From assembly GCA_020427145.1 (NCBI GenBank), contig JAGQOU010000338.1, positions 1,406 to 65,405 of the forward strand: 64,000 nucleotides of DNA, written 5' to 3'. A model generated the notes under the pieces. It did not search any database. It was given only the letters and a program-made list of their open reading frames with translations, and was not told where the DNA came from. Shown here one piece after another: positions 39,186-60,589 of this stretch. Numbering within the stretch: the stretch's first letter is position 1; each line of letters starts with the position of its first letter. The position numbers were made by a program, and so were the translations under genes. The stretch is from Planctomycetales bacterium. Its GTDB lineage: Bacteria > Planctomycetota > Planctomycetia > Pirellulales > Lacipirellulaceae.

Positions 39186-42100
39186 TCACTCGTTGCCGCT
39201 GATCATGCCGTCGGCGGGGCCGCTATTGCGTCTGGCGACCCACGATTCGCCGAAGTGCGTCAGCGCCAGGTCGAATGCCGCTCGATGGCGTGTCGCGCCT
39301 GACCGCCGCTGCGCCTCTTCGCGGCGCGGCGTCTGCGGCCGCGGCGACGACTCGCCGGTCAACGACCGGGATAGGCCACGCTCCATTCCGTCTTGATGCG
39401 GCCCATTGAAGACAGCTTCGTCGCGCCAGGCGTCTTGAGCGATTGCGTCGTCGTCCATCAGCAACGCAATCCCGGCAAAGTCGCTCTGCCTGGACGCTTC
39501 AATCGCCTCGGCCGCTTGGTCAGAAAACGCAGCGGCCACCGCGGGCGCCAACGTGGTTCCGAAAGAGGCGCCCCATTGGGCCAGATCGGCGCCATCGACG
39601 TCGCGATCGGCGTCGGCGTCGCCATCGGCCGCCGTGGCGGTAAGCTGTGCGGCGCCAAACCCGCGCTGCCAAATGAGGAAATCGCCGCCATCGACGTCGG
39701 CGTCGCCGTCGAAGTCGCCGGGGACCGCCGGACCTTCGCCGCTCGTGCCGGGCGAACCGCCGCGGTAGTAACTGGCCCGCCAGTTCGCACCGGCGGCGGG
39801 ATCGGCAAAGGGATCGACAATCTCCACCGAATGGCCGCCGCCGTCGGCAACAGCCGGCCATGGAAAACTATCGTCGTAGGTGAAATCCTGGATCGTCTGC
39901 CCCTGGGCCCCAAGCAGGGCAATCCGCTCGCCGCCGTTCGATAGACTCGCCGATCCGTAGCCCTGGGGCGCCAGGTTCACGCCCGCGCCGTAGACTGCGG
40001 CAAAGGCAACCGGGTCCTTGGCCACCACGATCCGCGCACCGGCGGCGAGTTCGATGCCCGCGGGGAAGGAGTAGGGCGTTGACGCAAACTGAGCGATTTG
40101 CACGCCGTCGAGACTCACCGGCTGATTGCTCGGGTTGAGCAATTCGATGAACTCGAGAGACTGCTCGTCCGCCACGCCGGCCTGCGGCGCCGGGTTGTAA
40201 TGGAACTCCACAAGGCGGAGGTTCGAGGCGTCCGCCGGCGCCACGGAGGTAAACTCGGCCTCGTTGGCCGCCGACCAGACGCCGCCGCTAAGCGCACGGG
40301 CCCGCACTTGGACGGCGCCAACGATGTCCACCGGCGTTCCATTGTAAAGTTGCGCGGTCGCCGAGACGGCGCCGCCGATCGCCCGCGGGTCGGAGCCGTC
40401 GGTCGTGTACCAAATCGCCCCGGCCGGCGCCGACATCGTCAAGTCGTAACCCGCCGGCACTTGTCCGCCAAATTGGCTGAAGGTCGGCGCGGTGACGTTT
40501 GAGTAGAGTCCCGCCGAACGCAGCTGATTAAGGAAGATGGATTGGCGGTTGTTGAGGAAACCCAGCACGTTGCCGATTTCGTTGATCCATTGAGTCTCGA
40601 CGAGAGGCGTGCTGTAGTGCATATCGCCCCAACGCGCCGATTCGGCAACGATCGCCTCGGCAATTTCATCGGTAATGTCCAGATAGCGAGCCACGGACTT
40701 GGCGGTCGAGAGCGGACCATCGTTGAAGAACGCCCGATGCACGCGGTCGGCAAAGGCGATGCGGAATTCCTCGCTCGACTTCAAACTCGAATAGGGGATG
40801 GCCGCCCCCTCGGACACGCCAGTTCGATTGGTCGTGACGCTGGACCCGAGCCCCAAGGCGGTTTCCGTGTCCCAACTGATGAATTTGAAGCCCGTGCTGT
40901 CGGGGACGTTCTCCCGCACGGCCCACCAGTTGCGATGCGGCCAATCGACGTTGCCCATGTAGAAATTGAGCATCAAGTAGTCGATGTAGTTGGTCGCGTC
41001 GAGGTACGTGGCCAAGGCGGGATTGTCCGACCCGTCGGGATTGAGCCCCAGTACCTGCATGTAGGCCGCCGTCTTGGCCGATTGCGACGACGCCGAACCG
41101 ACCGCGTGCGACAGCGAAACCAGCGTGTTCCAGGCGTCCATCGTGCCGCTGTTGATGGCGCCCGAATTGATGGCGTCCCAGTCGTCCTTGGCGCCGCCGA
41201 AATAGCTGGCCGCGAACGAGTCGTCCGGCCGCTCGACTGGCGTGTAGAGCCCCCAATAGACGCCGTTGATATAAAGATGCACTCGCGAATGATGCGACGA
41301 AGGCTGGCCCAGGGCCAGTTGCGACTCGTTGCCAAACGCGTTGCGGGCGTACTGGGCCTTAGCGCCCGCGGCGTCCCACGCGTAGCCGTCGTTCGAATCC
41401 ATGCGGAGCACAATCGTGTCGAACGACGACGCGGCGTCGTTGCCGAATAGCGGGAAGTCGAGCTTGGTATTGCCCTCGTAAATCCCCTTGAACACCAACC
41501 GCATCGAATGCTTCTTGCTGAGCGAGTCGTTGCGAAAAGCGCCGCCGTGCATGCGAACGCCGGCGTCGATCTGGAACTCTTCTCCTGTCGCCGGGTCGAT
41601 GTACTCGACGCTCACAGCGCGCTCCCAGGCGCTGCCGCTGGCGGTTGAGTTGGTGTAGATGCCGGTGGGGCCGAACAGATCGTCGACGTCCATCACCAAC
41701 GACATCGTGGGAATGGCTTGGAGATCGTCCTTGATCGTCGCCGCGTAAATGCCGCCGTACTTGTCGCCGCCAATCGAGACGCCGGACGAGTTGAAGTTGC
41801 CAATGACGTCAGGGTCGAGACCGTAGTCGGCGCTGAAGGGCCCCCAGTTCGCGGGGAAGCCTTTATTGAGCGTGTTCAGATAGGTCTGCTGGACAATGTC
41901 GTCGACGAAAAAGTACGAGCTCGTCGCGGGCGACGACGGCAGGTAGCCGTCGTGGAACGCTTGCACGCGAATGGTCGTCGTGGCCGAGACAGTGATCGGC
42001 GCCGAGTAGAGCGAACCGTTGGTCGGCGAAGGCGCCGAGCCGTCGGTCGTGTAGTAGACGTCCCCCGGCGATACGCCGCTGTCAATGCTCAACTGGAAGG

Positions 42101-43805
42101 GCGCTGAGTAGAACCCATGGGGAACGCTCAACGTCGGCGTCGCAACAATGCCCGCATAACCCTCGCTGTTCGGCGCGCCGGGCGTGGGATTGGGCATGTA
42201 TTCCAGCGCCAACGTGTCGTCGACGAGCTCCGTCGCCGTCAGCCGAGGAACGGACAGCAGGTCGGAACTGACGTCGGTGATGTTCAGAGCGTGAATCGCG
42301 AGCACGTTCGTGCCCGCAACTAGGCTGTTCAGGTACGGCGTCAGGTTAAACTTCTGCGGCTGGACGGCCAAATTGTCGTCCCGATTCTCGGTGGCGTGCG
42401 ATTGATAATTCGGCAAGGCAGGCGCGGCCGCCGACGCGACGCGCACGCCGTTGAGATAGGCGACGAAGCCGTCGTCGTACTGCATATCGAGGGTCAGGGA
42501 ACCCAGCGCCGCGGGATCTGCGACGTCGAAATCGATTCGCTGGTAGACGCTGGTGGGATTCGAGTTCCACTGAGACGCGACGTTCAGGTCCACCAGTGGA
42601 GTAAAGTCGACGGCCCCGTTGGTGAGCAATTCGAATTCCGCGACCTGAATCGCAACGGGTTGGTTTTGCCCCGTGACCCCGAACTCCGTTTGCAGGTCAA
42701 ACCGGTAGTACTCGTAGGCGACGTAGTTCTCGAATTCATAGAGTCGCGTTTCAAACCGACCGGCAAAATTTTGCGCCGTGCGCGTGTCGATGACCGTGTA
42801 GTTGTTGCCGTCGTTCGAGCCGCTCAACGTCCAGGAATAGGGATCGCGATCCTCCGCGTCGTTGGCCGACGTGATGGTGTAAGCGCTAACGACTTGCTTG
42901 ACATTGTCGTCGAATTGAAACTCGTAGTAGGTGCCGGCGGGCATAAAGGCCAGCCACTTAGTAGCGGTGGAATTGTCGAGCGCCTTGTCTGGCTCTTCAT
43001 TGGTGGGCGACCCGGGAAAACCGCCGGCCGAGATTGTGCCGTTGACGACGCCATTCTCCTCAGGATCCGTGAAGTCGCCGCCAATCAGCCCTTCGGACAG
43101 TAGCGTGCCGTTGGGGATATTGGGCGGCGGGGCGTTGCCGACGTCGTAGCCCAGCCCCGAACCGCTGGAGGTCAACCAGCCGGCGTCATTAAACGAATTT
43201 AACGTCCATGCCGGCGGCACGCCAACCGACGGCGCATCGAGCGCGCCGTTGACGGGCAACAAGGCCGTCATTGGCGAGGCGGGGCCGACAAGCTCCAGCG
43301 CATTGACGTTCTCGTTGACGCCGTAGGAAACGTCGGTGCGCTGCGCCGGGTACTCGGGCGCAAATTCGTGAACTACGGTGTTCGCCGCATCCGTCAACGC
43401 GAGATACTCGCCGTCGGCGCTCAGACCGAAGTTTGCGTGCAGGCGGCCGTCGGCATCGACGTAGTCGTCAGTCGGCTGCCCCGAGGCGAACACGACCAGA
43501 TAACCGCCCGGTTCAAGGACCGTCTGGGGCGCTGCGGGAAACGTCCACTTCGCCGGACTCTGCTCGTCGTCAGTGAGGTGCCAGCCGGCCAGATCCACCG
43601 TCGCGGTCGTGGGATTGTAGATCTCGATCCAATCGGACGACTCGCCGTCTCCGTCGAAGAGCGTCGTGCTATTGGACGCCATGAACTCGCTAATCAACGG
43701 ACTTGCGCTGAGCAGATGGCGGTGCTCTAAGATCTCAAGCGAAAGCACTCGACGGCCAGGCGAAGGGTAACGCGTATCGGAGCGAGATGGCATAGGTGCG
43801 AACAC
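39186..43805 (-). CDS. Giant exoprotein: LTD - F5/8 type C - CHB_HEX_C-like - CotH kinase-like - CHB_HEX_C-like - LTD - double dockerin-like repeat
   Basis: 1539 aa. GTG start (the ATG at 43793 is the alternative). N-terminal GRRVLSLEILEHRHLLSA motif. Lamin-tail-like segments (ISEFMASN...DWIEIYNP...L.GW.L; later LVEFHYNP...EFIELLNP). Discoidin block at about 42624-43034. CotH-like blocks (HSMRLVFKG, VHLYINGVYWGLYTPVERPDD, YIDYLMLNFYMGNVDWPHRNWW, FISWDTE). Dockerin-like pair at 39558-39719. 123-aa acidic tail with no PEP-CTERM. Confidence 0.85.
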   Translation of the reverse strand: MFAPMPSRSDTRYPSPGRRVLSLEILEHRHLLSASPLISEFMASNSTTLFDGDGESSDWIEIYNPTTATVDLAGWHLTDDEQSPAKWTFPAAPQTVLEPGGYLVVFASGQPTDDYVDADGRLHANFGLSADGEYLALTDAANTVVHEFAPEYPAQRTDVSYGVNENVNALELVGPASPMTALLPVNGALDAPSVGVPPAWTLNSFNDAGWLTSSGSGLGYDVGNAPPPNIPNGTLLSEGLIGGDFTDPEENGVVNGTISAGGFPGSPTNEEPDKALDNSTATKWLAFMPAGTYYEFQFDDNVKQVVSAYTITSANDAEDRDPYSWTLSGSNDGNNYTVIDTRTAQNFAGRFETRLYEFENYVAYEYYRFDLQTEFGVTGQNQPVAIQVAEFELLTNGAVDFTPLVDLNVASQWNSNPTSVYQRIDFDVADPAALGSLTLDMQYDDGFVAYLNGVRVASAAAPALPNYQSHATENRDDNLAVQPQKFNLTPYLNSLVAGTNVLAIHALNITDVSSDLLSVPRLTATELVDDTLALEYMPNPTPGAPNSEGYAGIVATPTLSVPHGFYSAPFQLSIDSGVSPGDVYYTTDGSAPSPTNGSLYSAPITVSATTTIRVQAFHDGYLPSSPATSSYFFVDDIVQQTYLNTLNKGFPANWGPFSADYGLDPDVIGNFNSSGVSIGGDKYGGIYAATIKDDLQAIPTMSLVMDVDDLFGPTGIYTNSTASGSAWERAVSVEYIDPATGEEFQIDAGVRMHGGAFRNDSLSKKHSMRLVFKGIYEGNTKLDFPLFGNDAASSFDTIVLRMDSNDGYAWDAAGAKAQYARNAFGNESQLALGQPSSHHSRVHLYINGVYWGLYTPVERPDDSFAASYFGGAKDDWDAINSGAINSGTMDAWNTLVSLSHAVGSASSQSAKTAAYMQVLGLNPDGSDNPALATYLDATNYIDYLMLNFYMGNVDWPHRNWWAVRENVPDSTGFKFISWDTETALGLGSSVTTNRTGVSEGAAIPYSSLKSSEEFRIAFADRVHRAFFNDGPLSTAKSVARYLDITDEIAEAIVAESARWGDMHYSTPLVETQWINEIGNVLGFLNNRQSIFLNQLRSAGLYSNVTAPTFSQFGGQVPAGYDLTMSAPAGAIWYTTDGSDPRAIGGAVSATAQLYNGTPVDIVGAVQVRARALSGGVWSAANEAEFTSVAPADASNLRLVEFHYNPAPQAGVADEQSLEFIELLNPSNQPVSLDGVQIAQFASTPYSFPAGIELAAGARIVVAKDPVAFAAVYGAGVNLAPQGYGSASLSNGGERIALLGAQGQTIQDFTYDDSFPWPAVADGGGHSVEIVDPFADPAAGANWRASYYRGGSPGTSGEGPAVPGDFDGDADVDGGDFLIWQRGFGAAQLTATAADGDADADRDVDGADLAQWGASFGTTLAPAVAAAFSDQAAEAIEASRQSDFAGIALLMDDDAIAQDAWRDEAVFNGPHQDGMERGLSRSLTGESSPRPQTPRREEAQRRSGATRHRAAFDLALTHFGESWVARRNSGPADGMISGNE

Positions 43806-44166
43806 GGATGAGACTGCAAAGGAGACAGGCCCCGGCGAGCGGCGCCGGTGGCGCGCGCCGGTCTGCGAGCAACGACGCCGACGCCCTGGCTTGCGCGACT
43901 CCCGGCGTCAAACGGCATTTATCAACCGGGGAGACGAATCACAGCGTCGGCAACGGCGATTTGGAGGACGACCGTCCGCCAAACGACGCCCGCAAAACAA
44001 CGTTTGCCGACTCTGCAGTTGGGAAAAAACTCCGCGGTCGACGTCACGCTGGTCTAGAAAAGCGCCCCAGCGACGAACCGCGTCTTTCAGCGTGATCCCT
44101 TCCGCCGGGCAATGCAAGTCACTGGCGCCGCAACTTGTTTCGCCGAAGCCGTTGAGCGACCACGAC

Positions 44167-45687: not shown

Positions 45688-45743
45688 ATGGTTACGTCGT
45701 TTGCAAAAAGTCCTTGCCTAAATCCTCTTGTCGCATACCCGTT

Positions 45744-46376
45744 TTACGAAGAATACGATCCCTCGCTTCCGAGCGAGAGGCGACGCTCAATGCACCGGCG
45801 CAGCGATTTTCGTATCCGAAACAGGCACGATTTGACCGCAGCGGGCGTCTTTTGGGTCTGCTCCGCAATCTCGCAAATGGCGCTGTTGGAAAAATAGCGG
45901 TGGACCAGCATCTTCTTGTCGCCTTCGTTGAGCGACTGGACGCAAACCCGCAACGCACGCCGCGAGGGTTCGATGTCTTTTGAGGCAATCGGCCGCTGGA
46001 CCAGCTGCGACACCAACTCGCTGCTGAAGACGTGTCGATCGCGTCCCCGGTCTCGGAGCCACGCTTTTACCTGCCAGAGCGCCACGGAGCGCGCCCAAGC
46101 GTCAAAACTGGTTCCCGGACGAAACTCTTCGGCCTTTCTCCAGAGGACGATATTTGCCTCCTGGAGAATATTACCGGCGTCGTTCGGGTCTCCTACAAGT
46201 CCGCAAATGTATCGAAACAGCCCCACCTGGGCGCCCGTCAACAGGCGAACAAACTCATCGCTGGAGCCCCCCCGAGGGCTCTCCTCCGGAAATCGATCAG
46301 GTCCAAACGGTTCGGGTGGGAGTCGTGAGGCCATGGACATGAGCTCGATGGCTTGAGCGGACGAGTCGCGACGCAA
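45744..46376 (-). CDS. ECF-type RNA polymerase sigma-70 family factor
   Basis: 210 aa. Region 2 (LFRYICGLVGDPNDAGNILQEANIVLWRKAEEF....F.AWA..VA). Region 4 (ICEIAEQTQKTPAAVKSCLFRIRKSLRRCI). Several possible starts. Confidence 0.85.
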   Translation of the reverse strand: MRRDSSAQAIELMSMASRLPPEPFGPDRFPEESPRGGSSDEFVRLLTGAQVGLFRYICGLVGDPNDAGNILQEANIVLWRKAEEFRPGTSFDAWARSVALWQVKAWLRDRGRDRHVFSSELVSQLVQRPIASKDIEPSRRALRVCVQSLNEGDKKMLVHRYFSNSAICEIAEQTQKTPAAVKSCLFRIRKSLRRCIERRLSLGSEGSYSS

Positions 46377-47835
46377 TCGGCCGAAAACGAGAATCCGGCC
46401 AGATTCTTACCGCCGAACGATACCAGTCCGCAGGACGAAGGCAACCCAGCCCAGCCACCTGGGCAGCCCCTGGCGCGCGGCTCGCCTTGCGAAGCACGAA
46501 ATCACACAATCATCTTATTTGACAAGAGGTTGCGACAATTGGCGCCCAGCCTCCTCCCGCCATTGGCACACTGCCTGCGGCGGATCTCTCACGCCAAATG
46601 AACCATTCTCAGCTGGACCAATCGCAGCCCTCTCCGAATAGAAATACCACGGTAGACCGCAGGGTTGCAAAAAAACCGCGTGGACGGGCTAGCCCGACGC
46701 CGCCCAGCCGCTCGCCAACGGCCTCCATGCAGTTCCGAACTGGCGAAAGGCTCGCGGCTTGCCGCACATACTCCATCCACGCCCGCCACACGCTGGACCG
46801 ACTTGACAAATCTGCCACCAATTTCGATCTCTCGCAGGCCTCCCGCCTAAGCGATTTGCCCGCTGGTCCAGGATTGACCATTCCAACGAAGGCGTTTCCC
46901 AGCGCCCAGCTCGACGCAAGTTGTTTATCACAATCGGATTTCGGACGAGGTACGACCCTCCTCTGCTCCGGCTACGAGGCCGACATGCGGATTACCGCAT
47001 TCGCAAATCAACGGCGCATCTTGCCGCCGCCTGACAGTTTGCGAGTAAAACTCTCAAAAAAAACGAGATCATCGGCAACCTCGCGCCACCGACTGGTATT
47101 TCCTTCTACAGGGCAAATCGGCGTCGACGAAGTGGCGAAGCATTCTCGTCTTCCTGCCAAAGTGTATTCGCGGTTCGCATGACCGCCGATTTTCCCGCCA
47201 TGTCGTCTACGACCCCAGGGCAGCAGGGTCGTGAGAGCCGTTTACGCCGCAGCGTCGGCATGAGGTCACTCCAGCATGGGGGCCAATGTTGCCTAGTTTT
47301 TGACACGAAGAGGGCGTCGAGCTTGTCGCTTGGCAGCGGGGCGCCCGGCAGGTCGGATATGAGGCTATCCGACCGTTTGCCGAAGCGAAGCTGCGGTTAA
47401 TCGCCGCAAATGAGTTCTGGAATAGAGTAGCGGCAGGGTTACGACATAGTTTTGTTCGCTCGCGCGGGCAAGTTCGGTGGCCAAGGCAATTTGTAGGCCT
47501 TGGCTACCAAGCCGGCAGCGAGCGACGATTTTGGTCGCGCGCCGCGGGCAGACACTCCCGCGACGGGCGGATCGACCGAGAAGCTGCGTTGGTCATGCGG
47601 GGGCAAGCGACCGGCGCTCGCTTCTCGGTCGTCCGCTTCGTCGCTGAGCGCGATCGCAGAATTTGAGGGCGCACGTCAAGAGAATGGCGTTGCGCACAGT
47701 GGCAATCACCCCGAATTGAGACCGCCGTGAACATGGTCCGGGCGGGAGATTGCGTTGTGGAAGTCGTTCAAATCGTACGCAGTGCAACCGAGAACCAGAC
47801 TGAACAGCTCATCGCTTTTAGGAGATTTGATTGCC

Positions 47836-49644
47836 ATGACGAGGTTTCTTAAGTCGTTTGCCGCATCTCTGGGGTTGCTGGCCCTGTTGTCCCAGGCGCA
47901 TGCCGCGCCGTTCCTCAGCACCAACGATTTCATCATCGCGATCGACACCGACCCGGCGAATTTGCCGAGCAACTACCCCGGCGGTGAAGCGCCGATCAAC
48001 GCCCTTGATGGCGCAAGCACGTCGAAGTATCTGAACTTCGCCAAACTAAACTCAGGCATTATCGTGCAGCCGTTCATTGGCAGTACGACGGTCCAAAGCA
48101 TCCAGCTGACCACTGGTGACGATGCGGTCGAGCGGGATCCCTTTTCGTGGGAGTTGTATGGGACGAACGATCCGCTGTCGTCGGTCGACAATGGCGACGG
48201 AAGTGCGGAGAATTGGACGTTGATCGCGCAAAACGACGCAAACTTGCCGGAGGAGCGTCAAACGCTTGGCCCCGTGCAATCGTTTAGCAATTCGACGTCG
48301 TACTCGGCCTACCGCGTCCTCTTCCCCACCGTCAAAGACCCTGGCGGGGCCAACTCGATGCAGATTGCTGACATTGGGCTGTACGAATCAAACGACGCCA
48401 GTGGTCTGAGCGTTTGGGACGCATTTGAAACTGACGTTGTCGCGTTCGCCTATGCCCAACCCGATTCGAGATACTTCGACTACGAGGGCCCGGAAAACGT
48501 GCTTGACGGCAGCACGTTGGTACCGCGAGCTCCGCAGAGCGGCTATCCTGCGGCCGAGGGCCCGACGAATATCCTCGATGGCAACAGCGGAACGAAGTTC
48601 CTGAACTTCGGCGACGTGAACTCGGGCTTCATCGTCACCCCCGCATCGGGTGCGGCGCAAGTGCAAAGCTTTCAGATTACCACGGCCAACGACGCCGCGG
48701 TACGCGATCCGGGAAGCTGGCAGCTATACGGCACGAACGATCCGATCGTCAGCCTCGACAACAGCTACGGCGACGCCGAAAGCTGGACCCTGCTGGACGG
48801 AGGCGACTTGGCGTTGCCCGATGAGCGCTTCACCATGGGATCCGTCGTGCCGGTGAGCAACGCCGGGACGTACACGTCCTACAAGATGGTGTTCCCCACG
48901 GTCAAAGGCCCCAATGACGGCACCCTGCAGTTCGCCGACATGTCCTTTTACACTTCGACCGACGGCACCGGGTCCAACATCCTGGCGCCGGGAGATGCGA
49001 TCCTGGCGATCGACGAATCCCCGGCGACGCAGCTTACCAAATATCTTAACTTCGGCGGCGAGCGCAGCGGCTTGATTGTGACGCCCGACGCCGGCGCCAA
49101 GGTGCTGACGGGCTTCCAGATCACGACCGCCAACGACTTTGATTCGCGCGATCCGACAAGCTATGAGATTTACGGCACGAACGATCCGATCACCAGCGAA
49201 GCCAACGGCAACGGCGACAGCGAGAACTGGACGTTGATTTCCTCGGGCGCCCTGGATCTGCCGTTGGAGCGTCAAACAGATGACGAGCTAATCTCGTTTG
49301 CCAACTCGACTGCTTATGCATCGTACAAGGTCATCTTCCCGACCCTGAGGGATCCCGGCGAGAACTTTGACAACTCGATGCAGATTGCCAACATCCAGTT
49401 CTTTGACGATTCGGTCGGCGTCGACGTCGACCTGAACGACGACGGCAAGGTCGATGGCGCCGACTTCCTGCTGATCCAGCGGACCAACCCCGCGTTGACC
49501 GGCGACTGGCAAAGTCAGTTCGGCGCGACCGGGCTGGCCTCGGCCGCCGCGGCGGGCGTGCCGGAACCGACTTCGCTGGTCTTGGTCGTTGCGGCGGCTG
49601 CCCTGATGGCAGCCGCCGGCCGCGGCCGGATCGGACGGAGCTAG
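47836..49644 (+). CDS. Secreted protein with three discoidin-like modules, dockerin-like repeat and PEP-CTERM anchor
   Basis: Start at the ATG at 47836 (AGGAG 12 nt upstream; MTRFLKSFAASLGLLALLSQAHA). Modules at about 47911-48387, 48415-48951 (with a partial internal duplication of the N-terminal strand) and 48976-49404. Dockerin-like segment at 49426-49524 (DLNDDGKVDGADFLLIQR...DWQSQFG). VPEPTSLVLVVAAAAL at 49555-49641. Confidence 0.85.
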   Translation: MTRFLKSFAASLGLLALLSQAHAAPFLSTNDFIIAIDTDPANLPSNYPGGEAPINALDGASTSKYLNFAKLNSGIIVQPFIGSTTVQSIQLTTGDDAVERDPFSWELYGTNDPLSSVDNGDGSAENWTLIAQNDANLPEERQTLGPVQSFSNSTSYSAYRVLFPTVKDPGGANSMQIADIGLYESNDASGLSVWDAFETDVVAFAYAQPDSRYFDYEGPENVLDGSTLVPRAPQSGYPAAEGPTNILDGNSGTKFLNFGDVNSGFIVTPASGAAQVQSFQITTANDAAVRDPGSWQLYGTNDPIVSLDNSYGDAESWTLLDGGDLALPDERFTMGSVVPVSNAGTYTSYKMVFPTVKGPNDGTLQFADMSFYTSTDGTGSNILAPGDAILAIDESPATQLTKYLNFGGERSGLIVTPDAGAKVLTGFQITTANDFDSRDPTSYEIYGTNDPITSEANGNGDSENWTLISSGALDLPLERQTDDELISFANSTAYASYKVIFPTLRDPGENFDNSMQIANIQFFDDSVGVDVDLNDDGKVDGADFLLIQRTNPALTGDWQSQFGATGLASAAAAGVPEPTSLVLVVAAAALMAAAGRGRIGRS

Positions 49645-51355: not shown

Positions 51356-51359
51356 AACA

Positions 51360-54300
51360 TTGAGAGGCAACGCTGTGGCTATTCCCCATCGGCCGCGAAA
51401 CCACGGGGCTCTGTCCCGCGGTCGCCGGCCTGTTTCGCATAGTTTGCATGTCGAGCATCTTGAGCCGCGGCATCTGCTCGCCGGCGACGTGTTCCTCATC
51501 AACTTCCAGTTCGACGAAGTGCCGACGCCCGACAGCTACGTGCGCGACGTCGGCGCCCTGTTCGGCGATCGCGGCAACGGCCTCACCTACGGCTGGTCGT
51601 CCGATCACACCGACGTGTCCCGCGACCGGGGCGTCGATCTCGATCAGCGCACCGACACGCTGATTCACTTTCACCAGAACGCCAACTGGGAATTGCAGCT
51701 GCCCAACGGCGACTACGAGGTGACGGTCGTCGTGGGCGATCCCGGCACCAACGACGGCGTGCATACCGTGAACGTCGAGGGGGTCAGCTTCTTTGCGGCT
51801 GTGCCCGACGGAAATACGCCGCTGTTGGCAACGCAGGTCGTGACAGTGGCCGACGGCCGCCTGACGCTCGATCAGGGCGCTGCCGCGGACAAGGCGACGC
51901 GCATCGACTACATCCACGTGATTGGCGTGCCCAGCGCCCCCAACGCGGCGCCGGCGGCGCCAACGGTCACTGAGCCGGCCGCCGAAGGGCAACAGGTCAA
52001 TCCCACCGACGTCCACATGGAAGCCGTGGGCTTTTCGGATGGCGACGGGAACGCCCATAAGTCGTCCGACTGGGAAATCTGGACGACCGGCGCGAGCCCC
52101 GAACTGGTGTGGGCGACCATCGGCATTCAGGGCGTCGAGCGTCTGCACACCCACCTGGGCGACGGCTTTTTCCAGAACTCCCACGCCGGCCGACTCGACC
52201 TGTTGCCCAATACGGACTATCAGCTGCGGGTGCGGTTCCGCGACGATGCCGGGTCGGTCAGCGCGTACTCCGTTCGCAACTTTCACACCACCAGCGCCAC
52301 AACGACGTTCCCCCTGCAGATTGAAGACGTTGTGGCATCGCCGGCGCCCGCTTGGGACACCGTGTTCGGCGCGCCCGTCGAGCTGCCGGACGGCACGACG
52401 ATCCTGTCGCCCGGCGATGCGATCGTGGCCATCGACACCGACGGCAACAGTTCGTATCCGGGCGGCGAATCGCCGCCCAACGCCGTCGACGGCACGCTCG
52501 CCAAGTATCTCAACTTTGGCGAGATCAACTCGGGCTTCATCGTGACGCCGGCGACCGGTTCGTCGACCGTCACCGGATTTCAAATCACCACGGCCAACGA
52601 CGCCGACGAGCGCGATCCCACCGCGTGGCAATTGTTTGGGACGAACAGCCCCGTCGTCAGCACCGACAACAGCACCGGAGCCGGCGAGAGCTGGACGCTG
52701 ATCGACTCGGGGTCCGTCGCGCTGCCGCTTGCGCGCGATACGCTGGGGCCGTTGGTGGCCGTGACCAACACGACCGCGTACACGTCGTACCGGATGGTGT
52801 TTACGGGAGTGCGGAACTCGGGGGCCGCCAACTCGATGCAGATTGGCGAGATCCAGTTCTTTGCCGACGACGCGGGTCCCGCAACGCCGCCGTCGCTGCG
52901 CATGGAAACGCCGGATGGCACGCCGCTGCTGCGAATCGACGGCGACTCGGCGCCTGGCAATCTTGTGACGGACTCTCCCACGCTGCCGTCTCACAAGCCG
53001 GTGCGAATCGTGATCGACGCCGGGTCGCGCGGCCTGTTTTTAGGCCAAAGCGATCTGACCTTCACCGACGAAACAGATAACGAACACACGATTTTCCTGC
53101 CCGAGGTTGATCTCGCCGCGGGCGAGTCGCTGACTCTTTGGGCGGCACTGGACGGGGCGACGTATTTTGGGACCGCAGGGCAGACGGCCCCCAATTTCGA
53201 CAGCCTCGCCCGTGCCGCCCAACTTGATTTGCCGTTTATTGCCCTGCAATCCGGCTTCATCGTCGAGGAGGTGGCGGGCGGCATGCAGTTGCCGACCAAC
53301 ATCGCCTTCGTCCCCAACCCTGGCTCCGCGCCCGGCGACCCGCTGTTTTACGTCACCGAGTTGTACGGCACGATCAAGGTCGTCACCAACGACGGCACGA
53401 CCAGCGACTACGCCACCGGGCTGCTCAATTTCAATCCGACCGGCAACTTCCCCGGCTCCGGCGAGCAGGGACTCACGGGAATCGTGGTCGATCCGGCCAC
53501 CGGCGATGTGATCGTCTCGCGCGTTCGCGACACCGACGGGCAACCGGGCGGCGCCCATCACCCGCAGGTCGTCAAGTTCACCAGCCTCGACGGCGGTCTC
53601 ACCGCCGCCACCGAAACGGTGCTGTTGGACATGGTGGGCGAGTCACAGGGGCAATCGCACCAAATCTCCAACGTGTCGATCGGGCCCGACGGGATGCTAT
53701 ACGTCCACAACGGCGATGGATTTGACGCAAGCACGGCGCTGAACCTCGACTCGTACCGCGGCAAGATTCTGCGAATGACGCTTGACGGCCAACCGTTGGC
53801 CGACAACCCCTTCTACAACGCCGGCAACGGGATCAACTCGCGCGACTACGTCTACGCATACGGTTTTCGCAATCCGTTTGGCGGCGCCTGGCGCGCGGCC
53901 GACGGCACGCACTATGAGGTCGAGAACGGACCGAGCAGCGATCGCTTTGCGAAGGTCAACCCGGGGCAGAGCTATCAGTGGGACGGCTCCAACGCGTCAA
54001 TGTTCACCAACGCGCTGTACAACTGGGATCCGGCCCACGCCCCGGTGAACATCGCGTTTGTGCAGCCCGAGACGTTTGGCGGCAGCGGCTTTCCCTCGCA
54101 ATACTGGGACCAGGCCTTTGTCAGCGAATCGGGCCCGACTTACGGCTTAGGTCCGCAGGTCCTTGGCAAGCGCATCGTCGGATTCCAATTGGACGCCCAG
54201 GGCAACGTCACCAGCGGACCGGAAACGTTGGTCGAGTACGTAGGCATGGGCCGCGGCACCGTGGTGGGACTGGCGGCGGGCCCCGATGGCTTGTACTTCA

Positions 54301-54959
54301 CCGAGTTGTATAAAGACGTCGACGCCGTGACGCCGATCGACGCCGGCGCACGCGTGTTCCGCGTCCGCTACATCGGCGGAAATTCAGCGGACTTCACCGG
54401 CGACGGGTTCGTCGACGGCGCCGACCTGTCGGTGTGGGAAACCAACTTCGGCGCGCCCAGCGGCGCCTCGCGCACCACCGGCGACGCCGACGCGGATCAT
54501 GACGTCGATGGCGCGGACTTCCTCCTCTGGCAACGCAGCTACTCGCCCGCTCCGGCGGCGGCAAACGAGGGCCTCGTCGCCGCTTCCAGCGGCTCCACCG
54601 CGTCGCTCGTCACAGCGGCGGCGAGTTTCGAGAGCGAACCGGCGGCGGCTGACTCACCCGACGAATCGTTAGCCGCGATGCCGTCGGTGGCCGCCGCCTG
54701 CGATCTGCTCAATCATGCGATGGGGACCGAGCACGACGGCGACGCTGCGGAGTTGCACGACGAGTTCTACGCGGATGTTTCGAGCCATTGGCGACCGCGA
54801 ACTGCGACCACGGAGACGGGATTCGACGCACCGAGCTTGAACCGGGCGGCGAGGCCAGGCCATCACGCTCAGCAGCACGACCAGGCGACTGACGCCGCGG
54901 GCGAGTTGGAGGGGATCGGACGGGCGCTGCGACATCTGTTGCGAGGCCGCGTCAGGTAA
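51360..54959 (+). CDS. Giant exoprotein: malectin-like CBM - discoidin-like module - PQQ-type sugar (sorbosone/glucose) dehydrogenase-like propeller - double dockerin-like repeat
   Basis: 1199 aa. Non-ATG start (TTG 51360 or GTG 51375). N-terminal RGRRPVSHSLHVEHLEPRHLLAG motif. Malectin-like FLINFQ...GLTYGWS...NGDYEVTVVVGD. Discoidin module at 52401-52862. SGDH-like blocks (LPTNIAFVP, YVTELYGTIKVV, GPDGMLYVHNGDG, GKILRMTLDGQPLADNPF, AYGFRNPFG). Dockerin-like pair at 54387-54542. 138-aa tail with no PEP-CTERM. Confidence 0.85.
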   Translation: MRGNAVAIPHRPRNHGALSRGRRPVSHSLHVEHLEPRHLLAGDVFLINFQFDEVPTPDSYVRDVGALFGDRGNGLTYGWSSDHTDVSRDRGVDLDQRTDTLIHFHQNANWELQLPNGDYEVTVVVGDPGTNDGVHTVNVEGVSFFAAVPDGNTPLLATQVVTVADGRLTLDQGAAADKATRIDYIHVIGVPSAPNAAPAAPTVTEPAAEGQQVNPTDVHMEAVGFSDGDGNAHKSSDWEIWTTGASPELVWATIGIQGVERLHTHLGDGFFQNSHAGRLDLLPNTDYQLRVRFRDDAGSVSAYSVRNFHTTSATTTFPLQIEDVVASPAPAWDTVFGAPVELPDGTTILSPGDAIVAIDTDGNSSYPGGESPPNAVDGTLAKYLNFGEINSGFIVTPATGSSTVTGFQITTANDADERDPTAWQLFGTNSPVVSTDNSTGAGESWTLIDSGSVALPLARDTLGPLVAVTNTTAYTSYRMVFTGVRNSGAANSMQIGEIQFFADDAGPATPPSLRMETPDGTPLLRIDGDSAPGNLVTDSPTLPSHKPVRIVIDAGSRGLFLGQSDLTFTDETDNEHTIFLPEVDLAAGESLTLWAALDGATYFGTAGQTAPNFDSLARAAQLDLPFIALQSGFIVEEVAGGMQLPTNIAFVPNPGSAPGDPLFYVTELYGTIKVVTNDGTTSDYATGLLNFNPTGNFPGSGEQGLTGIVVDPATGDVIVSRVRDTDGQPGGAHHPQVVKFTSLDGGLTAATETVLLDMVGESQGQSHQISNVSIGPDGMLYVHNGDGFDASTALNLDSYRGKILRMTLDGQPLADNPFYNAGNGINSRDYVYAYGFRNPFGGAWRAADGTHYEVENGPSSDRFAKVNPGQSYQWDGSNASMFTNALYNWDPAHAPVNIAFVQPETFGGSGFPSQYWDQAFVSESGPTYGLGPQVLGKRIVGFQLDAQGNVTSGPETLVEYVGMGRGTVVGLAAGPDGLYFTELYKDVDAVTPIDAGARVFRVRYIGGNSADFTGDGFVDGADLSVWETNFGAPSGASRTTGDADADHDVDGADFLLWQRSYSPAPAAANEGLVAASSGSTASLVTAAASFESEPAAADSPDESLAAMPSVAAACDLLNHAMGTEHDGDAAELHDEFYADVSSHWRPRTATTETGFDAPSLNRAARPGHHAQQHDQATDAAGELEGIGRALRHLLRGRVR

Positions 54960-55075
54960 CTGCTGGCGCACCGTACCATTGCGATCGTCGCGCAGGCTTC
55001 GAGTGCGAACAGGCGGCCATCGCGTTTCCGGCATCGCGCCCCCTGACCGCTCGCCGTGGCGATCTGAAGAATGCC

Positions 55076-56428: not shown

Positions 56429-58806
56429 CAGTGAGATTCCTCCTCGGCCGCTCCGGGGGAGCGAGCGTATTGAAAGGGCGTGCTCTTGACGATCGCCAGC
56501 GTCAACGCTGAAAAGCGATCGTCGCCCTGGGCGGCTACCGCCGCGATCTGCTCCACCGCGCAATGGTCGTAGTGCTCCAGCCCCCGCGCCAACGCAAAGG
56601 TGAGCAGCTTCTCCGTCAACGCCGTTCGGAAGTCGTCGAAACGGTCCAATAGCAGCGATCGCAGGCCAACCGGTCCTTGAAACTCCGTACCGTCGGGCAA
56701 CGAGCCCTTATCGTCAATCGGCTGGCCGGCGTCGGAATCGCGCAACCGGCCGAGAGCGTCGAAACGCTCCAGTGCAAAACCGAGCGGATCCATGTTGACG
56801 TGACACGATGCGCAACCGGGTTGGCTGCGATGCGCTTCGAGGCGCTCGCGCAGCGTCCCGGCGGGTTGCGTCGGATCGTGCTCCGGCAAGGGCGGTACGT
56901 TCGGCGGCGGCGGGGGAGGCTCGTCGCCCAACAAATTGGCGAGAATGTACTTGCCACGCACCACGGGCGACGTGCGATTGGGATGGCTGCTCACGGCCAG
57001 CGCACTAGCCAAGCCGAGCACGCCGCCCCGACCCTGGTTGCGTTGCTGGTCGCTGAGCGGCACGCGGCGGAACTCCGGCCCCGCGACGCCCTCGATCCCG
57101 TAGTGCCGGGCGAGTCGCTCGTTGAGGTACGTGAAATCGGCATCGAGAAAAGTGCGAATCGGCAGATCGTTGCGGACGATCTCCAAGGCGAACTCTTCGG
57201 TCTCCTGTCTCATCGCCGCGCGGAGTCCCTCGTCGAATTCGGGAAAGATTTGCGGGTCGGGACTCAATGTCTGTAACTGGCGGGTTTCGAGCCATTGTCC
57301 GGCGAAGCTCGTCGCCAAGTGCCTGGCCCGCTCGTCGTGCAACATCCGCGGCACCTGGGCGTCGAGTTCGCTGCGCAGTCGCCCGGCCGCCGCGAGTTGC
57401 AGCAACGTTCGGTCCGGCGTCGATCCCCAGAGGAAGTAACTCAATCGCGCCGCGAGTTCGAACTCGTCGACCTGGATCGCTTCGCCCGGGGGCGTCCCCG
57501 CCGGGACGTTCCCCAACAGCAGAAATCGGGGCGAGACCAACACCGCCTGCAGCGCCACCTGCATCGCTCGTTGGTAGCTGCCCCCGTCGTGTCGCACTTG
57601 TTCGAGAATCTGCAGCAACCGATCCACCTCGCCGGGCTCCACGGGCCGCCGCCAGGCGAGCGGCAAGAACTCGCGCCATTGTCCCGCGGCGATCTCGCGC
57701 CACCCGGCGCCAGATTGCCATTGCTCGGGGGCGGGCGTCTCCTTGAGCAGATTGTCGCGCGTCGCCGCGGGGGCCTGCTCCGCGAAATGGTGTGGTCCGG
57801 TGACCGACAGACTGTGAACGATGAGGTTGCGATCTCTCGCCGCGGGATCGCCCGCCTGCGGATTGTAATAGTCATTGAGAAAAGCGACGCCCAGTTCCAC
57901 CGTGGCGCCAGCGGCCAGATCAACCAGTACGGTGAAGTGATCAAACTCGTCGGCGTCCGCGCACACGTCGCACTCCAGCACCTGCCGACCGCCAGACTGC
58001 AGCGACATCCGCACGGGCTCGTCGCCCGCCTGTTCGCCGGCAACGACGGCGCACAATGCGTACTGACCGCTCTCTGGCGGCGTGAATTGGGCGGTCGCGG
58101 TCGCGCGGGTGTAGAGCCTCCTCCCCGCACCGCCGTCATGCACAGCCACGCCTGGGCCTTGGCTGAGGGCCATCGGCGCGCCTTGGTCGGGCAGGTTTTC
58201 CGGAGCGGGCACCGCCTGTTCGGCAATCTGCTCCGCGGCCGTGAGATACTTCTCGACCAACGCTGGCGACAAACTCAATACATTGGCGTTGTTGTCGAAC
58301 CCGTAGGCGAGCTCGTCGGGCGGGAAGAGTTCCGCCACGGCAAAGTCGACGCCCAGCAAATCGCGAATCGTGTTGCGATACTGCTCGCGGTTGAGCCTGC
58401 GCAGCGGAACGCGCCCTGGCTCAAGCTCGCCGGTGCAGTCGACTTGATCGAGCCGCGTTTGCAGCCACGCGATCAAGTCTTCTCGCTCCGCTGCGGCGGG
58501 CTGAGGCATCTCCTCGGGCGGCATGTCGCCGGCGCGAAGCCGCCGGACGACGTCGAGCCACCGCTGGCGATCCTGTTGAAAGTCGTCGCCGCCCTGAAGG
58601 CGATCGACAGCGAGCCCTGACTCGGCGTCATCGCCGGCGTGACAGTCGCCGCAATAGGTTGCCAACAGCGGACCGGCGAACGACTCGTACGCCGGCAACG
58701 GCTCAAGCGGCGCTTCCGCAACGGCCCCGTGAGAAATCAACCCTGCGATCGCCAACGCCAGCGCCCCAAGAGCGGCGTTGGCGCCGCGACTGTTCGTGTC
58801 GTGCAT
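56428..58806 (-). CDS. DUF1592/DUF1595/DUF1587/DUF1588/DUF1585-family protein with N-terminal CxxCH motif
   Basis: Start probably the ATG at 58806 (signal-like ALGALALAIAGLISHGAVA); the ORF track starts at 58914. YCGDCHAG heme-like motif. LSYFLWGSTPD, NERLARHYGI, RTSPVVRGKYI and CASCHVNMDPLGFALE blocks. Canonical partner of DUF1501 in Planctomycetota. Confidence 0.9.
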   Translation of the reverse strand: MHDTNSRGANAALGALALAIAGLISHGAVAEAPLEPLPAYESFAGPLLATYCGDCHAGDDAESGLAVDRLQGGDDFQQDRQRWLDVVRRLRAGDMPPEEMPQPAAAEREDLIAWLQTRLDQVDCTGELEPGRVPLRRLNREQYRNTIRDLLGVDFAVAELFPPDELAYGFDNNANVLSLSPALVEKYLTAAEQIAEQAVPAPENLPDQGAPMALSQGPGVAVHDGGAGRRLYTRATATAQFTPPESGQYALCAVVAGEQAGDEPVRMSLQSGGRQVLECDVCADADEFDHFTVLVDLAAGATVELGVAFLNDYYNPQAGDPAARDRNLIVHSLSVTGPHHFAEQAPAATRDNLLKETPAPEQWQSGAGWREIAAGQWREFLPLAWRRPVEPGEVDRLLQILEQVRHDGGSYQRAMQVALQAVLVSPRFLLLGNVPAGTPPGEAIQVDEFELAARLSYFLWGSTPDRTLLQLAAAGRLRSELDAQVPRMLHDERARHLATSFAGQWLETRQLQTLSPDPQIFPEFDEGLRAAMRQETEEFALEIVRNDLPIRTFLDADFTYLNERLARHYGIEGVAGPEFRRVPLSDQQRNQGRGGVLGLASALAVSSHPNRTSPVVRGKYILANLLGDEPPPPPPNVPPLPEHDPTQPAGTLRERLEAHRSQPGCASCHVNMDPLGFALERFDALGRLRDSDAGQPIDDKGSLPDGTEFQGPVGLRSLLLDRFDDFRTALTEKLLTFALARGLEHYDHCAVEQIAAVAAQGDDRFSALTLAIVKSTPFQYARSPGAAEEESH

Positions 58807-59290
58807 GGTAGTGACGCTGCCAGGAACAAAGTTCGCGGGCCATCGCTGCGCGATCCGCGCAACGTGCAAGACGCACCTACCACTATACGGCCACCGATAC
58901 GGCCCCGTAAACATGACGGAAGATTGCCTGAATTACCTCGCCGCAGACCACGAACTCGAATTCGCGTGGTTTTTCATCGCAGAGACGCACGCCGCGCTCA
59001 TCAGCCTCACTTCGCGATGAGCCATATTGCGATTCAATCTCTCCCATAGCGTGAAATCAGACACATTTCACGCGAGCGCGAGTCGCTGCGACGCGAATGC
59101 GTAGCCGAGATCGGACGGCCCGTCGCTGCCGCGATTCGGGGAAAAACTCATTGTTCGCACGTCTTCGCGCAATCTGAACAACGGAGCGAGCGGGCAAACG
59201 ATGCGAAACGTCGCTCGCGGCGCCAACGGTCGCTGTCGATGCGCGTCACGCATGGGCGTGGGGGCAAGTACGCTACCCTGCTGGCTGGCG

Positions 59291-60589
59291 TCACGTCGAC
59301 GCGGGATGCCGTGCCTTGCCCCGACTGGGGATCATCCGGCGCAGTCGATCCGATGCGAACGGGCGGGACACCTCGTCCGCATCAGTCCGACTCTCTCGTA
59401 AGGCCCAGCTGCCAGCTGCCAACGCCGCCAGAACCGACCACGAGGCGTAACTCCGTTCTCGTTCAGCCACAGGACTCACGGGGCCCGCCACGCCAGTCCA
59501 TGCGGCGAAGGCGGTGTCGCGTTCCGCGGTTGCGGCTTGATGCGAGTCCGTCTCGCCCTGCGCAGCGACGGATTCCGAACGCTCAACGCGCCCCGTGCGA
59601 ACCGTCGCCAGTGCGGGTTGAATCACTGTCGGCGATGCAATCTCCGCGGTTGCGCTACGGTGCGCGGACTCGCTCTCCCGCGAAGCCGTTGGAACCTGGT
59701 GGTTCGCTGGCTGGGTCTCGTGAGCATCAGCAAGAGATCGCGGCGCCGCGGCGGCGGCACGAAGCCGCGTCACGCGGGCTTCGACGAATGCGTCGGCGGG
59801 TTGGTCGACCGACGACAACGGCTCAACGTCGTGAACCTCATCAGCGCGGGCACGCGCTGGACCGCCGGACGCGATCGGCGGGGTCTCAGCGGCCGCGACC
59901 TCAAACGCCGCTTCGCGTCCCTGCGACGTCGTGAGACGCGGCAATGCGTTTCGCTTTGGCGCCTCCGAACCGCGGTGCATGTCAACGGGTTCGCGCTCCG
60001 TCAGATGCTGAGAATGTTCCCGCAAATCGACGAACGGCCCGGACAAGGACGCCAACGCCTCAGCCACGGGAATCTCGTTGGGCGCCTGCGGCAGAACGCC
60101 CGGCGTGGGAATGGTGGTTACGGACGCCGGAAACCAGCCGTAGAGACTGCCGTCCGAATCAAACGCCAGGTTCAGGGCGTGTCCGTCTACAGTCAAAGAA
60201 TAAAGCAGTTGGTCAGCGCTATAGTTATGGTTGTCGAAGAAGGAGACAACGGAGCCCGATACGCGCAACCGCTCCACAACATCCCCATCAGCCAACGCTA
60301 GGTCAGAGGCGGTGAGAGCGCTTTGAATGTCGATAGAACCTTGAGTCGTCGCCGAAGCGTCGAATCCTGCAAATACAATCGCCGACGCTGCCGCAGCGGG
60401 CTCGCGCAATTGCAGACGCAAAGCCGTCAAGTCAATCGACGTCGCGAGATCGCCGCTGGACGGAATGGTCGCCGACAATGTTGTTGCCAACGCCAGACGG
60501 TCTTCGCATTGTTCAAATGCAAGCCGGCGGCGCGAATCGCCGCTCGGAAGGTCACGGCGACGCTTACGTGCGATACGCCAATTCTTCAT
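59291..60589 (-). CDS. Hypothetical exported protein translationally coupled to the Ser/Thr kinase
   Basis: The ATG at 60589 overlaps the kinase TGA (ATGA). 432 aa. N-terminal basic stretch + SRRRLAFEQCEDRLALA motif. Middle beta-rich region. Long acidic/Ala-rich disordered half. Hydrophobic YASWSVLAALAAGSWAL near the C-terminus. Confidence 0.6.
   Translation of the reverse strand: MKNWRIARKRRRDLPSGDSRRRLAFEQCEDRLALATTLSATIPSSGDLATSIDLTALRLQLREPAAAASAIVFAGFDASATTQGSIDIQSALTASDLALADGDVVERLRVSGSVVSFFDNHNYSADQLLYSLTVDGHALNLAFDSDGSLYGWFPASVTTIPTPGVLPQAPNEIPVAEALASLSGPFVDLREHSQHLTEREPVDMHRGSEAPKRNALPRLTTSQGREAAFEVAAAETPPIASGGPARARADEVHDVEPLSSVDQPADAFVEARVTRLRAAAAAPRSLADAHETQPANHQVPTASRESESAHRSATAEIASPTVIQPALATVRTGRVERSESVAAQGETDSHQAATAERDTAFAAWTGVAGPVSPVAERERSYASWSVLAALAAGSWALRESRTDADEVSRPFASDRLRRMIPSRGKARHPAST

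Follow-up and report, generated by a model that had tools for sequence, protein, structure and literature searches.

Hundreds of the largest planctomycete proteins bear an N-terminal tag that no known translocon should recognise, a problem that is now two decades old. The consensus of the tag, RRLxxExLExRxLLA, and the idea that it serves as a new type of export signal at the N-terminus come from Studholme, Fuerst and Bateman (2004), as cited in PMC8567305, a 2021 study in which the motif was treated as a planctomycete cell-surface signal in the proteome of Tuwongella immobilis. That organism has 52 carriers, of which 20 were detected by mass spectrometry, 8 of these in the sodium dodecyl sulphate (SDS)-soluble fraction only, and the motif stands on 8 of its 10 longest proteins (4016-10566 amino acids (aa)) (PMC8567305). 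Pfam holds the motif as PF07595 (Planc_extracel, planctomycete extracellular; 20 positions, gathering score 25.5) and NCBIfam as NF012209 (LEPR-XLL; cutoff 17 bits), models that span 20-24 positions, and PMC10952558 lists Planc_extracel among signal-peptide models together with YSIRK, TAT_signal and ESPR. We found no mechanism for the motif in the literature searched. Here we analyse a 64,000-nucleotide (nt) stretch of DNA from a Planctomycetales bacterium (contig JAGQOU010000338.1; hereafter the window), in which the N-termini of three proteins, P1, P2 and P3, are, as judged by sequence comparison, divergent copies of this planctomycete-specific motif. We describe the anatomy of the motif and its conservation at the peptide level, its replacement of the signal peptide, its exclusion from proteins with a C-terminal PEP-CTERM signal, and the extracytoplasmic domains that the two classes of protein have in common.

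The N-terminal motif in the window and in relatives

In the translated open reading frames (ORFs) of P1, P2 and P3, an Arg-rich leader is followed by L-x-Phi-E-x-L-E-x-R-x-L-L-(A/S), and the motif starts between aa 17 and 29 in each protein (Table 1). The cores of P1 (RRVLSLEILEHRHLLS) and P2 (SLHVEHLEPRHLLA) keep every core position. P3 has a weaker variant (RRRLAFEQCEDRLALA), in which E, E, R, L-3, Phi-1 and L8 are kept, L2 is replaced by Cys and L7 by Ala. The LTD domain of P1 begins 4 residues past the motif, and the mature domain of P2 follows it directly. We found no Sec-type hydrophobic (h-) region in P1-P3, the best 12-residue Kyte-Doolittle window scoring 1.4-1.6 and lying outside any possible leader, and PEP-CTERM is absent from all three by translation and NCBIfam. 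An earlier note on this stretch had reported the motif on these three proteins and had described them as lacking both a hydrophobic signal peptide and PEP-CTERM; inspection of the ORFs bears this out, and its coordinates were essentially right (6 nt early at the start for P2, about 3 nt off at each end for P3). It had also assigned non-ATG starts to two of the proteins. This is correct for P2, for which TTG 51360 and GTG 51375 are the candidates and there is no ATG option; P1 has ATG 43793 as well as GTG 43805, and either may be its start. P2 corresponds to MCA9237355.1 from a Planctomycetales bacterium metagenome-assembled genome (MAG), with a public start at GTG 51375 and a length of 1194 aa, and an exact look-up of the ATG-start form of P1 in a protein collection gave no match.

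The motif might be an artefact, that is, a set of chance matches or of mis-called starts that hide upstream signal peptides. The window copies do fall under curated hidden Markov model thresholds, and high-GC ORFs open far upstream, with uncertain start calls. Against this, the regular expression Phi-E-x-Phi-E-x-R-x-x-L gave 4 matches in the six frames of the window, where 0.03 were expected from residue-shuffled frames, and 3 of the 4 stand at the start of long ORFs. From the motif back to the in-frame stop, no start codon in P1-P3 precedes a hydrophobic stretch; upstream starts that expose signal peptides, which the earlier note had named as its own refutation, do not occur. The motif is also conserved in about 100 P2 orthologues and in the only distant relative of P3, and its codons vary synonymously, as expected of selection on the peptide. 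We therefore regard the artefact explanation as refuted.

Membership in the catalogued family is less direct. NF012209 matches P2 alone of the three, with 14.1 bits against its cutoff of 17. We treat the P1-P3 copies as sub-threshold members by orthology, because P2 homologues pass PF07595 (about 12 of those listed carry precomputed matches) and P2 aligns with about 100 orthologues column by column. When we scanned 64 N-termini (60 motif ORFs from the genome sample described below, P1, P2, P3 and P0175, a relative of P3), PF07595 matched 59 at E<=0.1 (best 3.4e-8) and NF012209 matched 15. Sub-threshold copies escape annotation: because the window copies are variants of this kind, the motif goes unnoticed in the public record, where a mis-called start also shortens one motif gene of the three, that of P3. 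Both the motif and the idea of an export signal for large planctomycete surface proteins were already known (2004, 2021), and the motif is catalogued under the two accessions above. What is incremental here is the exclusion of PEP-CTERM despite common modules, a small anchored subclass coupled to kinases, a linkage to sigma factors and a recurrent tail motif.

We examined conservation in the best 120 homologues of P2, which belong to Lacipirellulaceae and to lineages related to it (Posidoniimonas, Aeoliella, Lacipirellula, Bythopirellula). All of those with an intact N-terminus have the motif directly before the mature domain (...LLAGDTYLVNFQ), in no case with a hydrophobic signal peptide, and PEP-CTERM occurs in 0 of 120. 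A logo of 95 anchored homologues reads R-5 R-4 L-3 (R/Q)-2 Phi-1 E0 x L2 E3 x R5 x L7 L8 A9, with E0, E3 and R5 invariant and L2 99% conserved. Leaders are on average 20.7 aa long, with an Arg+Lys content of 32% and a net charge of +6, and a median of 21 aa separates the annotated start from the first Glu. Position x4 is most often Pro, which makes a continuous helix less likely. The recognition peptide comprises 13 residues, and 0-5 residues lie between its final LLA or LLS and the first folded domain. Loci that were chosen without a DNA pattern use different synonymous codons at the conserved positions, indicating that the peptide is what selection preserves; the same variation rules out a conserved element of DNA or RNA in its place. 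A search of a 5.8-billion-protein database with a 41-aa profile of leader plus motif returned only 4 short fragments, a number shaped by the E-value ceiling and by HMMER length bias.

Three familiar signals were also considered and rejected. A twin-arginine translocation (Tat) signal, an ESPR-type extension and a prepilin-type leader are ruled out by the lack of an uncharged hydrophobic stretch after the motif. P1-P3 do have RR, followed by the invariant E..E.R instead of an uncharged stretch, and Pfam TAT_signal does not match their N-termini even at E up to 10.

For a sample independent of protein family, we searched GTDB genomes, one for each species, for the back-translated core L..E.LE.R.LLA and obtained at least 120 loci. 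Among the matches listed, 69 of the 120 loci are from Planctomycetota and span Pirellulales, Planctomycetales, Gemmatales, Isosphaerales, Phycisphaerae/Tepidisphaeraceae and Kuenenia. Of 70 matches in these planctomycete loci, 59 are in frame with a basic leader before them and a Met upstream, at a median distance of 26 residues. Outside the phylum, the 51 matches are chance, internal or antisense matches in GC-rich genes, and none looks N-terminal. The motif is restricted to Planctomycetota in this sample. No hydrophobic window of >=2.0 lies within 30 aa past the LLA in any of the 59 carriers, and the three hydrophobic stretches found upstream of the motif all lie before a plausible Met. PEP-CTERM is found in 0 of the 30 complete motif ORFs. 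Four loci from Planctomycetota MAGs (L058, L059, L075, L088) hold a conserved family with an internal LQAEELE(V/I)RALLAD, a chance match to the DNA pattern that lies >300 codons from the start in three loci; the upstream part of the gene in L059 is beyond the block end. Given these internal matches, the core pattern without a basic leader and an N-terminal position is not diagnostic.

Signal peptides, PEP-CTERM and C-terminal modules

Six ORFs of the window (PEP1-PEP6; Table 1) end in (V/I/T)PEP, a hydrophobic helix and a basic cluster. All six have a hydrophobic signal peptide and none has the motif, as the earlier note had said, although the signal peptide of PEP4 (MGARGLRSPWSLVVIVCLAFCG) is present only if translation starts at the internal ATG 38295. 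The Pfam PEP-CTERM model PF07589 scores 13.5-20.4 bits on three of the six. Within the window, three motif proteins and six PEP-CTERM proteins show zero overlap (Fisher p = 0.012). We extended the comparison to four extra loci from Lacipirellulaceae or related genomes (L121-L124). Together with the window, these contain 18 PEP-CTERM proteins (200-1019 aa), of which 18 have a signal peptide and 0 the motif, and 7 motif proteins, all of them without a signal peptide and without PEP-CTERM. A search with the C-terminal module of P1 added about 13 PEP-CTERM proteins with an intact N-terminus, which have a classical signal peptide and in no case the motif. In total, PEP-CTERM occurs in 0 of about 130 motif proteins with a readable C-terminus, a hydrophobic core in 0 of about 160 with a readable N-terminus, and the motif in 0 of about 32 PEP-CTERM proteins. 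The partition seen by the earlier note thus holds far beyond the window. We conclude that the motif strictly takes the place of the signal peptide and is excluded from PEP-CTERM proteins, even though modules are common to both classes.

Size does not decide between the two architectures, because even at about 1000 aa PEP-CTERM proteins have ordinary signal peptides. Nor is the motif reserved for very large proteins, as the earlier note had proposed: carriers in the genome sample range from about 200 to >2250 aa, the longer ones being cut by the 8-kb blocks of the scan, and P3 has 432 aa.

Table 1 Features of the window discussed in the text
Feature	Position	Strand	Evidence or remark
P1, 1539-aa LTD/F5-8-type-C/CotH/LTD giant, motif-bearing	39186..43805	-	ORF translation; Pfam LTD, CotH, CHB_HEX_C_1, Fn3_assoc, F5_F8_type_C
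P1 motif GRRVLSLEILEHRHLLSA, aa 17-34	43704..43757	-	PF07595 15.1 bits, E 0.019
P1 dockerin-like pair, two EF-hand-like D-x-D-x-D...DG.D(F/L)..W segments	39558..39719	-	PF00404 20.4 bits
P1 C-terminal tail, ~123 aa past ...WGASFG (128 aa counted from the regex match end)	39186..39557	-	
P2, 1199-aa giant; discoidin-like domain and PQQ glucose/sorbosone dehydrogenase domain	51360..54959	+	Pfam, public record
P2 motif RRPVSHSLHVEHLEPRHLLAG, aa 22-42	51423..51485	+	PF07595 19.6 bits, E 0.0007; NF012209 14.1 bits
P2 dockerin-like pair	54387..54542	+	PF00404 20.3 bits
P2 C-terminal tail, ~138 aa past ...WQRSY (142 aa counted from the regex match end)	54543..54959	+	
P3, 432-aa motif protein	59291..60589	-	ATG overlaps kinase stop (ATGA)
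P3 variant motif SRRRLAFEQCEDRLALA, aa 19-35	60485..60535	-	PF07595 14.3 bits, E 0.034
P3 C-terminal moderately hydrophobic segment ASWSVLAALAAGSWAL, then 35-aa basic tail (candidate membrane anchor)	59399..59446	-	
Ser/Thr protein kinase with TPR repeats, translationally coupled to P3	60586..63681	-	Pfam Pkinase, TPR
Extracytoplasmic function (ECF)-type sigma factor, operon head; 165-aa TTG-start ORF	63489..63986	-	Sigma70_r2 and r4
ECF sigma factor upstream of P1	45744..46376	-	
506-aa anti-sigma-like single-pass membrane protein directly upstream of P1	44167..45687	-	
PEP1: signal peptide, two discoidin-like repeats, PEP-CTERM	8560..9780	+	
PEP2: signal peptide, three discoidin-like repeats, one dockerin-like segment, PEP-CTERM	47755..49644	+	
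PEP3: signal peptide and PEP-CTERM	35871..36800	+	
PEP4: signal peptide (internal ATG), dockerin-like segment, PEP-CTERM	38295..39179	+	long ORF 37578-39179
PEP5: signal peptide, rhamnogalacturonan-lyase domains, dockerin-like segment, PEP-CTERM	5972..8098	-	
PEP6: signal peptide, seven T5SS/PEP-CTERM-associated repeats, dockerin-like segment, PEP-CTERM	33331..35109	-	

Two of the PEP-CTERM genes deserve a remark. The long ORF of PEP4 (+) is probably two genes' worth of open frame, with PEP4 most likely starting from the internal ATG, and an overlapping ORF at 37136-37702 (+) begins with MRLLLLALAFASGC, a lipoprotein-type signal. The repeats of PEP6 belong to TIGR04393 (seven copies, E 1.8e-85) and are autotransporter-passenger-like, here on a PEP-CTERM anchor.

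The earlier note had singled out a dockerin-like pair and a long acidic tail as features of the two giants, P1 and P2. The pair is present at the positions it gave, with both copies below the Pfam Dockerin_1 (PF00404) gathering score of 22.9, but it is not specific to the class: four of the six PEP-CTERM proteins of the window have one dockerin-like segment 55-70 residues before the stop, and among the mostly short C-terminal fragments found with the P1 C-terminal module are many small proteins in which a full pair immediately precedes PEP-CTERM. We conclude that the dockerin-like pair is the usual module before PEP-CTERM, and that the giants bear a tail instead of a PEP-CTERM anchor. The tails are acidic in their first 70-90 aa only; the last ~55 aa are neutral to slightly basic (acidic/basic residues 7/9 in P1 and 6/7 in P2), contrary to the uniform acidity described earlier. 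In the P1 tail we found no PEP-CTERM, no membrane segment and no NCBIfam match.

At the place that PEP-CTERM takes in other proteins, after a dockerin-like pair and an acidic linker, a C-terminal element recurs: (S/A)(I/V/L)-D-x-(V/L/A)-F-x-x-(L/W/F), 1-25 residues before the stop and in one case 36. It is present in 40 of the 120 P2-family proteins, 3 of 10 tail-type fragments and 2 of 26 unrelated motif ORFs, and in none of 39 PEP-type fragments or 302 control ORFs; its carriers are among P0003-P0118, P0125, P0128, P0137, L038 and L065. No Pfam or NCBIfam model matches the element, and it is absent from the last 45 aa of P1 and P2.

These C-termini bear on a route resembling type I secretion, in which the export information would be C-terminal (calcium-binding dockerin-like repeats, acidic tail, terminal amphipathic D-x-Phi-F-x-x-Phi) and the leader with its motif would come out last and act as a plug for retention or tethering, in the manner of LapA-type giant adhesins. 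The lack of an N-terminal hydrophobic core in motif proteins, the overall acidity of P1 and P2 (acidic/basic residues 188/77 and 149/63), the calcium-binding-type repeats near the C-terminus and the distribution of the recurrent tail element are all in keeping with such a route. However, dockerin-like segments occur in just 5 of the 30 complete sampled motif ORFs, Pfam finds no RTX (HemolysinCabind) repeats in P1-P3, and, as noted, the two giants of the window lack the terminal element. Proteins of the kinase-coupled class have a membrane anchor and a basic tail at their C-terminus, which misfits a free C-terminal secretion signal. No genes for an ATP-binding cassette (ABC) protein, a membrane fusion protein (MFP) or TolC lie beside P1, P2 or P3, and none is recurrent in the 69 planctomycete loci; the sole ABC system in the surroundings is a MacB/FtsX-type pair at 29646-32061 (+). 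Moreover, an invariant, strictly N-terminal site and a leader resembling the n-region of a signal peptide are typical of a targeting signal. We consider a type-I-like route improbable.

Destination, operons and the export reading

Several domains of the motif proteins point outside the cytoplasm. Residues 345-519 of P2 (52392-52916) are 50-55% identical to the ~155-aa discoidin-like/DUF5000-like repeats of PEP1 (2 copies) and PEP2 (3 copies), and residues 258-394 of P1 form a 30% relative of the same domain. The identity between P2 and PEP1/PEP2 points to a recent exchange of domains between the two architectures. By Pfam, the catalytic domain of P2 is a soluble pyrroloquinoline quinone (PQQ) glucose/sorbosone dehydrogenase (GSDH). 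The GSDH, LTD, CotH and discoidin families are typically extracytoplasmic, and PQQ glucose/sorbosone dehydrogenases are periplasmic in other bacteria. The calcium-binding-type dockerin-like module is common to the motif and PEP-CTERM classes, and fractionation of Tuwongella (SDS fraction) points to the envelope for its carriers (PMC8567305).

P3 belongs to a subclass of small proteins that is coupled to kinases. It has only two relatives among 1.84 billion representative proteins. One is its own shortened public call, MCA9237358.1 (hypothetical protein KDA44_17915; 301 aa), which starts at an internal Met, aa 132, and lacks the motif. The other, P0175, is 37% identical to P3 and shares with it the variant motif (RRLAFEQAESRLALS) as well as the hydrophobic segment and basic tail at the C-terminus. 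P0175 stands third in an operon (L121, 2439-7167), behind an ECF sigma factor and then a Ser/Thr kinase with TPR repeats, with 4-nt overlaps; the motif protein of this operon has ~400 aa, and the order is identical in the window (59291-64000, -), where the frame of the ECF sigma factor is open to the right end and the true start may lie beyond it. The motif is preceded, at a distance of 22-184 nt, by the end of a kinase ORF in four further loci (L026, L048, L095 and L096; the genomes are Novipirellula, Roseimaritima, a Gemmatales MAG and Singulisphaera). The complete proteins of L048 and L096 end in a clear hydrophobic segment and a basic tail, as does that of L119, in which the kinase ORF is on the opposite strand. 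By the positive-inside rule, the body of these kinase-adjacent motif proteins would lie outside the cytoplasmic membrane. If the body is outside in L048, L096, L119, P0175 and, with less weight, P3, these proteins need a signal for translocation at the N-terminus, and the sole candidate is the motif. A C-terminal anchor of the stop-transfer type would also be easier to reconcile with a translocon that opens sideways, such as Sec, than with a one-step system. These small membrane-anchored carriers would be much easier reporters than 5000-aa giants.

A link to sigma factors extends to the giants. The sigma/anti-sigma-like pair upstream of P1 (Table 1) has a counterpart at P2 homologues in two of the extra loci, where a sigma gene and a ~510-aa gene precede the motif gene (L122, 7539-9821, and L124, 7583-9757; Posidoniimonas and Aeoliella), which suggests sigma/anti-sigma control of the giants.

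Such linkage raises the possibility that leader and motif are not an export signal at all, but an uncleaved handle for docking to the membrane or envelope, for quality control or degradation, or for regulation by the ECF sigma/kinase modules. The motif resembles an extended recognition peptide, with Pro frequent at x4, more than a membrane-inserting helix; P1, P3 and P2 homologues elsewhere lie immediately downstream of ECF sigma/anti-sigma or sigma/kinase genes; and we infer, rather than observe, export and cleavage of motif proteins. On the other hand, the domains of carriers occur in signal-peptide-bearing paralogues in the same neighbourhood, the motif stands exactly at the signal-peptide site in homologous domain contexts, and carriers have no other export signal. 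Tuwongella carriers are enriched in an envelope fraction (PMC8567305), and where a basic tail follows a C-terminal anchor, the body is implied to be exported. A handle without a role in export is therefore unlikely in our view.

We favour, with moderate confidence, the reading that the motif is a phylum-specific export or targeting tag standing where a Sec signal peptide would. It would act as an address that takes proteins across the cytoplasmic membrane towards the envelope or surface. A planctomycete-specific factor would read the basic leader and the 13-residue peptide in extended form and hand the chain to a translocon of the cytoplasmic membrane. The peptide would probably be removed after LLA; cleavage there is plausible because L-L-A meets the -3/-1 rule and the mature domain begins 0-5 residues later. 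The C-terminus would then set the fate of the protein, by a membrane anchor with a basic tail (the P3 class) or by a dockerin-like pair with a tail (P1 and P2), and PEP-CTERM/exosortase sorting would be used solely by proteins with ordinary signal peptides.

Several points weigh against this reading. Export itself, cleavage and the choice of translocon are deductions, and the enrichment in the SDS fraction is indirect support from another species. Thirteen residues with three charges cannot enter the lateral gate of SecY as an h-region, and the step from tag to translocon is without known precedent. No conserved secretion gene lies beside the motif genes in the surroundings of P1-P3 or in the 69 planctomycete loci, so that no machinery can be named; the recurrent neighbours in those loci are Ser/Thr kinases and common oxidoreductases only, and no peptidase or transporter recurs. 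The P1-P3 copies all score under the curated Pfam and NCBIfam cut-offs, and the C-terminal segment of P3 is just moderately hydrophobic. Finally, the cross-tabulation of motif and PEP-CTERM is rich in orthologues and not phylogenetically independent, and the PEP-CTERM fragments from the search with the P1 C-terminal module are mostly of unknown taxonomy.

A more elaborate version of the export reading adds several parts. The motif would be the tag of a Planctomycetota-specific route without a hydrophobic core, served by a dedicated receptor feeding Sec or by a separate machine; its substrates would be kept from exosortase; in a subset, PEP-CTERM would have given way to a dockerin-like pair with an acidic linker and, at the terminus, (S/A)(I/V)D-x-(V/L/A)F-x-x-(L/W/F); and modules of ECF sigma/anti-sigma or of ECF sigma/Ser-Thr-kinase would often govern expression. 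We offer this combination tentatively and think it doubtful as a whole. The earlier note had proposed a distinct, uncharacterised route for export or tethering. An unusual, uncharacterised signal stands, as published; distinctness from Sec is not supported, and the C-terminal anchors of a subset of carriers point to a Sec-like lateral exit. For the preferred export reading, the analysis narrows the question to a tag that replaces the signal peptide, is read as a peptide and not as a hydrophobic helix, and never joins exosortase sorting.

The surroundings of the motif genes are those of a planctomycete, with DUF1559 with N_methyl, DUF1552 and PSD/PSCyt families among the window neighbours. At 13939-17987 (+) lie an OmpH/Skp-like gene, LpxC and an LpxA-like acyltransferase, which belong to outer-membrane biogenesis. 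These genes and the MacB/FtsX-type pair fit a Gram-negative-type envelope, and none is beside the motif genes.

Comparison with known systems

Like substrates of type I secretion (RTX/LapA-type), motif proteins can be giant and acidic, with calcium-binding repeats near the C-terminus, no N-terminal hydrophobic signal and possibly an N-terminal retention element. Unlike them, motif carriers have no RTX repeats and no linked ABC/MFP/outer-membrane protein genes, and many have no common C-terminal element. PEP-CTERM/exosortase substrates lie in the same region of the genome as the motif proteins and have body and dockerin-like modules in common with them, but their signal is C-terminal and is always accompanied by an ordinary signal peptide, never by the motif.

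The motif resembles a Sec signal peptide (signal peptidase I type) in its N-terminal site, basic n-region, small residue at -1, aliphatic residue at -3 (L-L-A) and in the mature domain that follows right after, and signal peptides of the Sec type are found on homologous extracytoplasmic domains (PEP1, PEP2). It differs in having no uncharged h-region, at the place of which stand three invariant charged residues. ESPR (autotransporters and two-partner secretion), YSIRK-G/S and KxYKxGKxW (accessory-Sec serine-rich adhesins) are likewise lineage-specific N-terminal motifs on very large surface proteins. These three sit in the n-region before a normal hydrophobic core, whereas no hydrophobic core follows the planctomycete motif in the 59 sampled carriers.

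The closest relatives remain the proteins covered by PF07595 and NF012209. P1 and P2 differ from these models by His at x4/x6 or x6 and by a weaker RR context, and P3 by Cys at L2 and Ala at L7. All three have in common with them the consensus, the invariant Glu, Glu and Arg, the extreme N-terminal site after an Arg-rich leader, the phylum, and the same link to long multi-domain proteins of the surface type.

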